A stretch of 64,000 bases of DNA, taken from Halorussus marinus (GTDB lineage Archaea; Halobacteriota; Halobacteria; Halobacteriales; Haladaptataceae). The notes under the pieces were generated by a model that was not told the origin of the DNA, did no database searches, and was given only the letters and a program-made list of their open reading frames with translations. This document shows positions 45,597-48,970 of the stretch, piece by piece. Numbering within the stretch: the stretch's first letter is position 1; each line of letters starts with the position of its first letter. Location: assembly GCF_004765795.1 (NCBI RefSeq), contig NZ_SBIV01000002.1, forward strand, positions 62,001 to 126,000, read 5' to 3'. The position numbers and the translations under genes are program-made.

Positions 45597-45667
45597 GTCG
45601 TTCGACTGGGCCCAGACGCGCGAGGGATAAAAAGGCTCGCGTCGGGGCGGCCGACTCCGCGATCAGT

Positions 45668-45696
45668 CGGCGTCGGCGGGATCGACGACCTCGCCG
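45668..45696. repeat. Left 29-bp direct repeat (att-like; displaced copy of the nth 3' end)
   Basis: CGGCGTCGGCGGGATCGACGACCTCGCCG, identical to 48151-48179. With 45663-45667 it reads GEVVDPADAD* on the minus strand. Confidence 0.93.
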
Positions 45697-45706
45697 AGTC
45701 GACCGA

Positions 45707-46573
45707 TCAGAGAGTCGTCTGATTCCGAACCGCCGAGAGCGCTTCGTCGTCTTTGTATCGTGAGTACGGATTTAGCTCGGGATCGAGATACACGCAGTCG
45801 AACCCCCAGAGCGCGTCGGCCGAGAACGTCGCCGTCTTGCCCGAGTCGCCCTCGGTATCGCTCTTGTTGAACTGGTCGGGGTCCATCTCGCCCATTCGGA
45901 CTTCCCAGATCCACGCGGTGTCTTTCCGCGTTCCTCGCTCGTAGTTTCGGTCTCGATCCGCCAGAACGTACCGAAGCGTGACGTACAGGCCCGGTTTCGG
46001 GAGGTGTCCTTTCGGCATGTTGTTCTCCATCGCGACTTTGATCTCGATCCCCGGAACGCCACTCCGAGCGCCGGTGCTGATCAGATCGGGGAAATTCCCC
46101 GCGTTCACTTCGTAGAGCCCCTCAGACGCCTCGGCGACACCGGAGGCGAAAAACTCCCCGATCACGGTCGAGAGCGCAGAGTACTCGTCGAACTGTTCGG
46201 CGAGCGGTTCGACACCCCGCCGTTCGAACGCGAAGTCGATCGTATCCAGGTTCTCGTACGCTCTCTCGATCCCCATCAGAATCGCCGAGTTGTCGAAGGG
46301 AACGTCGTCGTAGATATCTGCGTCCTCGATCACGTACTCTTCTTTCGGTGTTCTGAACGATTCGGGGTTCACCAGTTCGGTGATGGTGACGTCTAATGCG
46401 TCTGCGATCCGCATCACGATCGAAATACCGGGCTCTCGTTCGCCCCGTTCGATCTTCCCGAGCGTGGTTCGGTGTATGTCAGCGGTCTCGGCGATCTCTT
46501 CGAGGGAGTTCCCGTGTAGCTCGCGGAGTTCCTTGATTCGCCGACCGAGATCCGATCTGAACTCGTCGCTCAT
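45707..46573 (-). CDS. XRE/C-protein HTH fused to a putative PD-(D/E)XK restriction endonuclease
   Basis: N-terminal LGRRIKELRE...SLEEIAETADIHRTTLGKIERGEREPGISIVMRIADALDV. The C-terminal domain has an E...FPDL...GIEIK catalytic-like motif. Divergent from a C5 MTase. Confidence 0.8.
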   Translation of the reverse strand: MSDEFRSDLGRRIKELRELHGNSLEEIAETADIHRTTLGKIERGEREPGISIVMRIADALDVTITELVNPESFRTPKEEYVIEDADIYDDVPFDNSAILMGIERAYENLDTIDFAFERRGVEPLAEQFDEYSALSTVIGEFFASGVAEASEGLYEVNAGNFPDLISTGARSGVPGIEIKVAMENNMPKGHLPKPGLYVTLRYVLADRDRNYERGTRKDTAWIWEVRMGEMDPDQFNKSDTEGDSGKTATFSADALWGFDCVYLDPELNPYSRYKDDEALSAVRNQTTL

Positions 46574-46610
46574 GCGTTGGGACCAGACACCGTCGCTCGT
46601 TAAACATAAT

Positions 46611-46626
46611 TGAGACAATTGTCTCA
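46611..46626. promoter_or_regulatory. Perfect 16-bp palindrome TGAGACAATTGTCTCA, candidate operator (C-box analogue)
   Basis: Read directly from the sequence. It lies just upstream of a minus-strand TTTAA (46604-46600), which is 27-31 bp before the ATG at 46573. Confidence 0.7.
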
Positions 46627-46793
46627 TCGTTGGCGATCGATTAACTCTGCGCCGATCTGACAACGGTTCGATCGAATTCGAGGCTCCTACGAAGGGTATT
46701 AAGGCGGTGCGAAGATAGCTACGGATAATGCATCGCCCCAGTCAGACCGAGACGGCCGTAACTGGCGACGAAGCGATCGTCTCACCGTAATCT

Positions 46794-48053
46794 ATGGTAG
46801 GTGTCATCGACCTGTTCTGTGGCACGGGCGGCTTCACGTACGGCTTCGAGACCCACCCCTCCGACCAGTTCGAAGTCCTGTTGGGACTCGATAAAAAGGA
46901 CGTCGCCGCCGAGACGTTCGAACGAAACCATCCGGACGCGGAGGTCGTGAACGCGGACATTCGAGAGTGGCCCCCCGAGAAAACGGCCCGACAGACGGAC
47001 GTCACTCCCGACGACGTCGACGTGATCGTGGGCGGTCCGCCCTGTCAAGGCTTCTCTTCGATTCGTCCGGACCGCGGCGACGACGTTCTGGACGAACGGA
47101 ACGGGCTGTACTCCGACTTCATAGAGTACGTCGCCTACTACGAGCCCGACTTCTTCGTGATGGAGAACGTGGTCGGACTGGCCACCCACGAAGACGGCGA
47201 GACGATCGGCCAGATTTTGGACGATACGCGACACATCGGGTACACCGCCGACTGGCGGATCCTGAACGCCGCCAATTTCGGCCTGCCACAGCGCCGAGAG
47301 CGACTGATTATGATCGGTGCGGCCGACGAGCGGGAGATCGAATTCCCGGATCCGACACACGAGGCGGACGGTCGAACGATCGGGTACCGGGACAAGTCGA
47401 AGGTCGTGACGACACAGCCCACGCTGGACAGTTTCCGGGACGCCAAAGCCCTCCGAGAGGCGAGAACGATAGTCGACGCCATCGGCGATCTCCCGGAACT
47501 GGAGGCCGGAGAACGCGCAGTCGAGTACACACAGCCGCCACAAAACCGCTATCAGGCGTCGCTACGCGACGGATCGGCGGAGCTCACGCTACACGAGGCG
47601 ACCGATCACGGGGAGAAGATGCTGACGATAATCAGACACAGCGGCCCGAACAAGCAGACGACCATCGAGAATCTGGAGCGGTCGCCGGAAGTGGACGACG
47701 TCGACGACTACATCACTACGGGGTACAGTTCGAGCTACTCCCGCCTCGACCCGGACCTCCCCTCGGTGACGATGACGGTCAACTTCATCCATCCCGCCTC
47801 CAACAAGTGCATCCATCCGACCCAAGACAGAGCGCTCACGCCGCGGGAGGGTGCTCGGATACAGAGTTTCCCCGACAGCTTCGAGTTCGTCGGAAACCGG
47901 AGCGACGTCGTAGAGCAGATAGGAAACGCCGTCCCGCCACTACTCGGGCGCGTGCTGGCAGAACACGTCGTCGGGATGTACGACGAGTCGTATCGGGCTG
48001 ATTACGCCGCGTGTGTCATCGATGACGGACCCGAGCGCACGGCCGAAATCTAA
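46794..48053 (+). CDS. DNA (cytosine-5)-methyltransferase
   Basis: Motif I DLFCGTGG, IV GGPPCQGFS, VI MENV, VIII PQRRER, IX/X RALTPREGARIQSFP...QIGNAVPP. Confidence 0.97.
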   Translation: MVGVIDLFCGTGGFTYGFETHPSDQFEVLLGLDKKDVAAETFERNHPDAEVVNADIREWPPEKTARQTDVTPDDVDVIVGGPPCQGFSSIRPDRGDDVLDERNGLYSDFIEYVAYYEPDFFVMENVVGLATHEDGETIGQILDDTRHIGYTADWRILNAANFGLPQRRERLIMIGAADEREIEFPDPTHEADGRTIGYRDKSKVVTTQPTLDSFRDAKALREARTIVDAIGDLPELEAGERAVEYTQPPQNRYQASLRDGSAELTLHEATDHGEKMLTIIRHSGPNKQTTIENLERSPEVDDVDDYITTGYSSSYSRLDPDLPSVTMTVNFIHPASNKCIHPTQDRALTPREGARIQSFPDSFEFVGNRSDVVEQIGNAVPPLLGRVLAEHVVGMYDESYRADYAACVIDDGPERTAEI

Positions 48054-48136
48054 GCGACCGCGTTCTCCAGAGGCCCGCCACTCCGCCCGGTAGCAGTGCT
48101 GTGGCCGCCTGAGCCGGAAGCGGATCTCGAACGGCG

Positions 48137-48970
48137 CTACTCGTTTGTGACGGCGTCGGCGGGATCGACGACCTCGCCGGTCGCGGGTTCGACGCCCACC
48201 CGATCGCAGAGGTCGGACAGCGGACACGCCTCGGGACCGTCGAGACACGCCGGTTTGCGGGCGGTACAGTGCTCGCGGCCGAACTGAATCGTCGCGGTGT
48301 GGCCGAAGCCGCACTTCTCGGCGGGCACCTCGCGTTCTAGGACCGCCCGGACGGTCTCGTGATCGGCGTCGGGCGCCGCGACCCCGAGCCGCCGGTAGAT
48401 GCGATGGACGTGGGTGTCGACGGGGAACACGCCCGACTGCCCGCCCGCGAACAGCAACACGCAGTCGGCGGTCTTCGGTCCGACGCCGTTCAGATCGAGG
48501 AGCGCCGACCGGACCTCGCCGGGATCGCCCTCCCGGACGAACTCGTCGAAGGCGGCCGCGCTCCCGTGGTCGTCGAGGACGCGGTCGGCGACGGTCGTGA
48601 TGACGTCGGTCTTCTGGTTGTAGAGGCCCGCCGGTCGGATAGTGTCGGCGAGTTCGTCGGGATCGGCGCCCGCGAGCGCGACCGCGAGGTCGGTGTCGTC
48701 GGACCCGTCCGCGCCCCCGGTGGCGTACCGCTCCATCAGCGCGTCGTGGGCCGGCTGGCTCGCCTTGTCGCTGGTGTTTTGACTCAGGATCGTCCGGACC
48801 AGACACTCGAAGGCCGGCCGACCGCCGTAGGTCTTCGTCCAGTACAACCGGCCGAGTTCGTCGACGACCGCCTCGGCGCGGGTGTCGGGGTCGCCGTCCC
48901 GGAAGCTCGCGAACGAGCTCCCCGCGGGGTCGCCGCCGCTGATGTTCTCGGCGGGTTCGGGATCGTCCAT
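48137..48970 (-). CDS. nth: Endonuclease III family (HhH-GPD) DNA glycosylase with 4Fe-4S cluster
   Basis: TILSQNTSD, GVGPKTADC, FPVDTHVHR and C-TARKPA-C...CPLSDLC. Probable start MDDPEP at 48970. Confidence 0.92.
   Translation of the reverse strand: MDDPEPAENISGGDPAGSSFASFRDGDPDTRAEAVVDELGRLYWTKTYGGRPAFECLVRTILSQNTSDKASQPAHDALMERYATGGADGSDDTDLAVALAGADPDELADTIRPAGLYNQKTDVITTVADRVLDDHGSAAAFDEFVREGDPGEVRSALLDLNGVGPKTADCVLLFAGGQSGVFPVDTHVHRIYRRLGVAAPDADHETVRAVLEREVPAEKCGFGHTATIQFGREHCTARKPACLDGPEACPLSDLCDRVGVEPATGEVVDPADAVTNE
48151..48179. repeat. Right 29-bp direct repeat, inside the nth 3' end
   Basis: Identical to 45668-45696; encodes GEVVDPADA of the current Nth C-terminus. Confidence 0.93.

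Follow-up and report, generated by a model that had tools for sequence, protein, structure and literature searches.

A controller-endonuclease fusion in a putative CACGTG-specific restriction-modification cassette of the haloarchaeon Halorussus marinus

Temporal control of restriction-modification (R-M) genes is known from bacteria. The endonuclease Eco72I reads CACGTG and makes a blunt cut. In the Eco72I system both genes are under C control (PMC2632904, PMC2997769), and bacterial C proteins have been described as repressing the methyltransferase promoter while the divergent CR promoter is freed (review PMC12707154). Fusions of the C protein to the restriction endonuclease (C-REase) were reported in five bacterial cases of the PvuII family, one of which was shown to be active in both roles (PMC3850674). 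Neither R-M systems nor C proteins are in themselves new, and the same holds for C-REase fusions. For archaea, Table 1 of a REBASE survey lists zero control-protein genes in 519 complete genomes, a count in which fused genes may have been entered elsewhere (PMC10609329), the available text of PMC6471742 holds no mention of controllers, and our literature search returned no archaeal controller and nothing on the nuclease family described below, whose genes REBASE may already annotate.

The window, a stretch of 64,000 nucleotides from the genome of Halorussus marinus (G000), carries a fused controller-endonuclease gene (CR), the translation of which contains no internal stop, and 220 bp away the start of a divergent C5 methyltransferase (Table 1). 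An earlier note made from the DNA letters had described an uninterrupted 288-aa reading frame with an XRE helix-turn-helix (HTH) that is divergent from a complete C5 methyltransferase and contains the segments FPDL, GIEIK and SDTEGDSGKTA; all of these were recovered, the HTH as Pfam HTH_3 at residues 13-67 (E 1.7e-15) and the first two segments at residues 161-164 and 175-179. The HTH is controller-like, as the note had it: it matches the PADLOC Control_protein profile (E 3e-11) and C.BclI is the top PDB match of the family profile, and the recognition-helix motif HRT..G..ERGER is retained. Three features of C proteins are found here: an HTH of the XRE type that resembles known C proteins, a gene that precedes the endonuclease or is fused to it, and a conserved upstream palindrome. 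A stop codon between the two domains, which would have undone the fusion, did not appear in a public DNA run: a single contig covers all of the stretch and differs from it by 10 substitutions and one deletion between genes, the fused gene shows two substitutions, both silent, and the fusion is kept, which indicates that it is not an assembly error, although the run is possibly related to the source sample. A second C5 methyltransferase of this genome (L173:3572-4978, contig C12) lies among genes that resemble those of a provirus or plasmid, with no adjoining nuclease seen.

Table 1. Positions of the features of the cassette and its surroundings in the window
Feature	Position	Strand	Basis or remark
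Left copy of 29-bp direct repeat	45668..45696	.	Holds displaced original 3' end of nth (GEVVDPADAD-stop)
Fused controller-endonuclease gene (CR)	45707..46573	-	288 aa ORF
Predicted PD-(D/E)XK endonuclease domain, residues 74-288	45710..46354	-	Model and structural search
Family signature S-x-T-x-G-D-S-G-K-T-A, residues 238-248	45830..45862	-	Invariant alignment columns
Predicted catalytic motif P162-D163...E177-x-K179	46037..46090	-	Alignment of 123 homologues
XRE/C-protein-type HTH domain, residues 1-68	46370..46573	-	Pfam HTH_3, PADLOC, family-profile PDB match
TATA-like box of CR gene	46599..46609	-	Ends 25 nt before ATG; spacing shared with three further haloarchaeal loci
Perfect palindrome TGAGACAATTGTCTCA, predicted operator	46611..46626	.	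7 bp upstream of CR TATA-like hexamer
Putative upstream TATA-like box, methyltransferase strand	46694..46703	+	Sequence; inference
20-codon upstream ORF	46728..46790	+	Ends 3 nt before methyltransferase ATG
Degenerate second operator, one half-site intact	46770..46783	+	Intact at that position in G001, L001, L002
C5 cytosine methyltransferase (419 aa) with intact motifs	46794..48053	+	Pfam PF00145, E 1.4e-65
Endonuclease III (nth), insertion site	48137..48970	-	HhH-GPD and EndIII_4Fe-2S; syntenic in congeners
Right copy of 29-bp direct repeat	48151..48179	.	Inside present 3' end of nth

Based on these data and those presented below we propose, with a probability of roughly 70%, that the two genes constitute a Type II R-M cassette in which the methyltransferase marks CACGTG, whereas the fused protein cuts unmarked CACGTG with its C-terminal domain and controls the cassette genes with its HTH. 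The earlier interpretation was largely right in its account of the fold, the controller-like HTH and the linkage to a methyltransferase, is supported further by a conserved palindrome and an acidic composition, and was incomplete with respect to specificity, linker and rarity. Regarding the linker, the model of the full-length protein shows two well-predicted domains with a dip in confidence at residues 61-70, and the acidic stretch that follows the HTH, previously taken for an acidic linker, corresponds in the alignment to the arm with which unfused nucleases begin; R74 is conserved in 118/123 rows. As judged by the alignment, this stretch belongs to the nuclease and the linker between the domains is 6 residues long. 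The same spacing of 6 residues is found in 15 close (haloarchaeal-type) proteins, whereas the median in 108 distant homologues is 20. The close group is also the more acidic one (D+E 0.20 vs 0.13, pI 4.45 vs 5.98), in keeping with the adaptation to high salt that the earlier note had proposed.

The nuclease domain gave 757 matches among 1061 candidates, which fall into 106 clusters at 50%, and 164 GTDB loci, mostly bacterial, carry the family; the following locus counts refer to the best 80 of these 164. The cognate methyltransferase adjoins in 78 of the 80 (69 divergent, 9 convergent) and the other two loci end at contig edges; separate and linked genes for methyltransferase and endonuclease are one hallmark of a Type IIP R-M system. 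The HTH is fused to the nuclease in 70 loci, is encoded by a separate gene just upstream in 7 and is missing from 3, and so the fusion, which had been implied to be uncommon, prevails among these 80, a share biased upward because the query was an alignment of fused proteins. The unfused form also exists on an E. coli chromosome, where C (84 aa) overlaps R (210 aa, 40% identical) and M (49%) is divergent. The 7 loci and that of E. coli, in which the HTH lies directly upstream, argue for the descent of the HTH from a separate controller gene.

Strong matches in Halobacteria are confined to 3/401 genomes (G136, G000 and G001). In a quick, unrooted tree of the nuclease the members from haloarchaea cluster together at the end of a long branch. 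The simplest explanation would be that the family came in from bacteria once and then spread among haloarchaea. A metagenome scan returned one unrelated HTH. The family is also present on a 10-kb Psychrobacter plasmid (L081, NZ_MN657034.1) and in a Streptococcus phage record (MN270268.1), and the operator motif described below is found on three viral contigs (L170-L172). A distant relative of the nuclease, devoid of an HTH and convergent with an amino-methyltransferase (L184:1591-3286 in G209; L091:5184-8001 in G294), occurs in 11/401 Halobacteria, three of which (G294, G066 and G113) have it as a pair of paralogues in tandem, which hints at an enzyme that works as a heterodimer.

Searching with up to one mismatch, we find the palindrome GAGAC-W4-GTCTC upstream of 63/68 fused divergent genes of the best 80 of 164 loci, and in none of the convergent ones (0/2 fused, 0/7 separate), the total being 66 matches across 817 kb of loci. 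Conversely, a tandem C-box pattern of our own making is found in 6/7 convergent loci with a separate C gene vs 2/68 fused divergent loci. The tandem double operator of the PvuII type is not seen at the divergent loci, which have a single palindrome. That the single operator is tied to the fusion was ruled out, as the unfused E. coli locus carries a single palindrome too; what the loci with a single operator have in common is their divergent layout. Read on the methyltransferase strand of the bacterial loci, the core of the palindrome is TATAGT in 41/62, and a -35-like hexamer precedes it by 16-18 nt in 32/62 vs 0-9 at shifted positions, so that the bacterial operator likely covers the methyltransferase -10. 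We propose that a dimer of the fused protein would bind this operator and, as the bacterial site lies over the -10, binding would shut the methyltransferase promoter and favour the divergent CR promoter.

The arrangement in haloarchaea is different. A scan for sigma70 promoters found nothing, as expected in an archaeon. G001, L001 and L002 have the operator twice, 7 bp past the methyltransferase TTTAAA and again 7 bp ahead of the TATA-like hexamer of CR. At the window the CR-side copy is kept at 7 bp, and the methyltransferase-side copy has decayed together with its TATA. The operator would thus have been duplicated in haloarchaea, the copy downstream of the methyltransferase TATA-like box acting as a repression site, whereas for the copy upstream of the CR box activation is slightly favoured over repression. 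Activation of CR would delay the nuclease until the chromosome is methylated. The position of the CR box suggests that the CR transcript is leaderless. Given the decay of the methyltransferase-side elements, the methylase of H. marinus is likely constitutive from an upstream promoter; the decay of the second operator, a point against the proposal, shows that the circuit can lose one of its parts. Upstream boxes in other haloarchaeal copies are hinting at a second methyltransferase promoter: L001:5810-5900, L002:5810-5900 and L089:7174-7260 contain an upstream TATA-like box with a short ORF or an in-frame extension running through the methyltransferase-side operator. The 20-codon ORF of the window was considered as a broken methyltransferase N terminus and this was ruled out, homologous methyltransferases being 419 aa. 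Elsewhere in the genome an almost perfect match to the operator, its core rich in A/T (C21:4127), one of 28 GAGAC-N4-GTCTC sites, may be an off-target or a chance occurrence. Finally, as the linker comprises only 6 residues, the two dimer interfaces of the fused protein would likely compete.

A wider reading, which we hold at somewhat short of even odds, is that haloarchaea took over a controller switch from bacteria and rewired it, the palindrome that in bacteria blocks a sigma70 -10 having been duplicated at a fixed 7 bp from the TATA boxes, such that the HTH activates its own gene via TBP/TFB and represses the methyltransferase. On this reading the R-M system would be the first in archaea under the control of a C protein, built on an unnamed endonuclease family in which fusion is the rule, and self-cleavage would have stripped CACGTG from whole chromosomes. 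It is also conceivable, though unlikely, that the CACGTG system works while the HTH no longer regulates in archaea, being a passenger or only an autorepressor. The decay of the methyltransferase-side operator and TATA in the window is in line with this, as is the view that bacterial C proteins activate through sigma70 (PMC2175313), which is absent from archaea. However, the palindrome on the CR side is without a mismatch, 4/4 haloarchaeal loci keep 7 bp between it and the TATA-like box even though the spacer sequences differ, and the recognition-helix motif is kept, all of which speak for a regulating HTH.

The specificity of the cassette, held in the earlier note to be unreadable from the sequence, is pointed to by site avoidance. 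CACGTG is the most depleted of the 64 six-base palindromes in H. marinus (102 sites, O/E 0.11), the lowest in 78 pooled bacterial loci (60 vs 201 expected, O/E 0.30), and inside 77 cassettes it is seen twice vs 31.8 expected, whereas the one-base neighbours TACGTG and CACGTC are not depleted. Comparing orthologous sites with the congener G176 (290 kb aligned out of 400 kb fetched), 0/44 CACGTG sites are kept, whereas larger control sets of hexamers keep 29-51%. Most of the lost sites changed by transversion (27/44 became CACGTC or CACCTG), a pattern that agrees better with selection against CACGTG than with m5C deamination; the substitution spectrum did not reveal which cytosine is methylated. 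M.PmlI methylates CACGTG to m5C in an arrangement as in GCGC (PMC8112702), pointing to the inner C as the methylated base. The high-GC core contigs of H. marinus have 0-21 CACGTG per Mb, C1 having one in 756 kb; among the larger low-GC contigs, C7 reaches 166 per Mb and C11 252.

Most of 401 Halobacteria have 100-250 CACGTG per Mb, and fewer than 30 are found in G209, G205, G136, G100 and G000. The carriers G136, G000 and G001 rank 3rd, 5th and 7th lowest of the 401, as read from the table; when G000 is set apart, two carriers stand within the lowest 6 of 400, for which the chance would be 15/79800 on an assumption of independence that does not hold. In one family of Acidimicrobiia 11/91 genomes are carriers and the five lowest CACGTG counts all belong to carriers, the medians of carriers and non-carriers being 78 vs 185 per Mb (p 1e-5, or 3.5e-5 without the centre genome, which had been chosen for its low count), whereas the control palindrome GTGCAC gives p 0.07; these p values are overstated because kin are not independent. 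The 95 CACGTG sites of E. coli, a count without control, were set aside. CACGTG is absent from the main text of PMC10609329 and PMC6471742 and from the supplements searched. Based on the avoidance of the site, the target of the cassette is likely CACGTG.

It could be argued that the system recognizes another or a broader site and that CACGTG was lost to a different system, present or past. Indeed, G205, G209 and G100 are as depleted as H. marinus and yet the system was not found there, and among 50 carrier genomes several have ordinary counts (G433, G444 and G463 at 230-280 per Mb). In addition, G176 is nearly purged of GATC-containing hexamers, GCCGGC, GGCGCC, GTCGAC and CTCGAG, CGATCG occurring 3 times in its aligned blocks vs 367 in H. 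marinus; lineage-specific purges of palindromes seem common in the genus, and they could serve to read past R-M systems. We nevertheless regard this explanation as quite improbable, since CACGTG is lowest in three separate data sets, the cassettes included, its depletion tracks carriage in an unrelated bacterial family, and the one-base neighbours are spared. Carriers of the distant nuclease are not depleted in 10/11 cases (129-213 sites per Mb), by which that nuclease and its amino-methyltransferase are unsupported as the cause of the purge in G209; in G294, one of these carriers, CACGTC is not depleted. A shared inherited purge in G000, G205 and G209 was likewise unsupported, as G205 stands apart from G000 in a one-gene tree that took in 19/20 genomes (G403 being left out).

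The preferred reading, that of a CACGTG cassette under its own controller, requires a nuclease at the C terminus of the fused protein, and the fold on which the earlier note had made its case depend was obtained by modelling. An AlphaFold2 model of residues 74-288 built from 150 sequences (pLDDT 94.7) retrieved NaeI at the top of a wide structural search (Z 9.9, rmsd 3.7, 151 aligned), followed by SwaI, NhoI, BglI, SfiI, DpnI and EcoRV. The best structural-search rows are restriction enzymes in 11/11 cases, with an identity to EcoRV/NaeI-class enzymes of 7-12%; with Foldseek the first rows are again all restriction enzymes, yet none at E<=0.001. The domain is therefore predicted to fold as a PD-(D/E)XK restriction enzyme of the EcoRV/NaeI class, the core fold being present in the model and the conserved PD...(D/E)xK residues in the alignment, where D163 and E177 are kept in 122/123 rows, K179 in 123/123 and the conserved helix glutamate, E130, in 122/123. 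E140 of the fused protein is replaced by N in 108/108 distant rows. The signature SDTEGDSGKTA may take part in DNA recognition. Searches of the domain against Pfam, NCBIfam, PADLOC and PDB sequences gave zero matches. Pfam RE_ScaI (PF09569) does not match the nuclease domain of the window and is weakly matched by 3/150 homologues (best 20 bits vs a cut-off of 25), one of which aligns over 160 residues with E 6e-4, below the curated cut-off. The names of the homologues are uninformative, and no match is named PmlI or Eco72I. That the domain is inactive or non-cleaving and the protein a regulator of an orphan-like methyltransferase, as the lack of a Pfam, NCBIfam or PADLOC family and the departure of E140 from the bacterial N might suggest, is the least probable alternative in view of the almost invariant catalytic residues and the mainly transversional loss of sites.

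The cassette likely entered the 3' end of nth with a 29-bp target duplication. The repeat is exact and has only two copies in the genome; the insert between the copies is 2454 bp long with a GC of 0.60 vs about 0.69, and contains the R and M genes alone and no integrase. The left copy holds the ending GEVVDPADAD, which is the nth ending in 7/18 congener loci, whereas the present nth of the window ends in GEVVDPADAVTNE followed by a stop. The flanks were matched in 19/19 congeners, and of the cassette itself there were short pieces at most among the matches listed. A search for flanking repeats at L001, L002 and G001 was negative. The perfect repeat suggests a recent insertion and the complete purge a long stay, which can be reconciled only on the assumption that the cassette has moved or been acquired anew. 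The interval between nth and the DUF373 gene (window 45600-48140; L113-L130) contains different small genes among congeners, making it a variable spot. Insertion of R-M genes with long target duplication was described by Furuta et al. (2010, PMC2853133) with a criterion of 30 bp, and no archaeal case passed their selection; as in their cases, R and M genes alone lie between target direct repeats, but the repeat here, at 29 bp, is just under that criterion.

The cassette offers a direct test of a bacterial regulator on archaeal promoters, with a named operator and target site, and the natural fused and unfused versions allow the idea of competing dimers to be tested. A function is suggested for several hundred proteins annotated only as transcriptional regulator or hypothetical, and a salt-adapted CACGTG cutter is predicted.

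Compared with known systems, the closest in build are the PvuII-family fusions (CR.NsoJS138I; Liang and Blumenthal 2013, PMC3850674), in which a C domain at the N terminus continues in frame into a Type IIP endonuclease; they too are usually divergent from the methyltransferase and raise the same question of competing dimer interfaces. Unlike them, the fused protein belongs to a different endonuclease family, with 70 fusions among the best 80 of 164 loci vs five cases, and orthology to R.PvuII finds no support, as there is no PDB sequence match and PvuII resembles the domain only remotely in fold (Z about 5, 8-10% identity). The predicted fold and the PD...ExK motif are instead shared with EcoRV/NaeI-class enzymes (NaeI, SwaI, NhoI, BglI, SfiI and EcoRV). 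The site inferred and the C5 methyltransferase are shared with PmlI (PMC8112702), compared here by site, and the predicted C control is shared with Eco72I, compared by description. A family member with separate C and R and divergent M is provided by the E. coli locus, which has the GAGAC-W4-GTCTC palindrome. Unlike the PvuII-type double C boxes there is one palindrome here, and there is an archaeal clade in addition. An operator made of one palindrome, which lies between divergent genes and overlaps the promoter of the methyltransferase, is also found with the C proteins reviewed in PMC12707154, and the single-palindrome motifs 7, 8 and 10 of Sorokin et al. (PMC2632904) have a similar layout as far as their description goes; both of these, in contrast to the locus of H. 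marinus, are bacterial.
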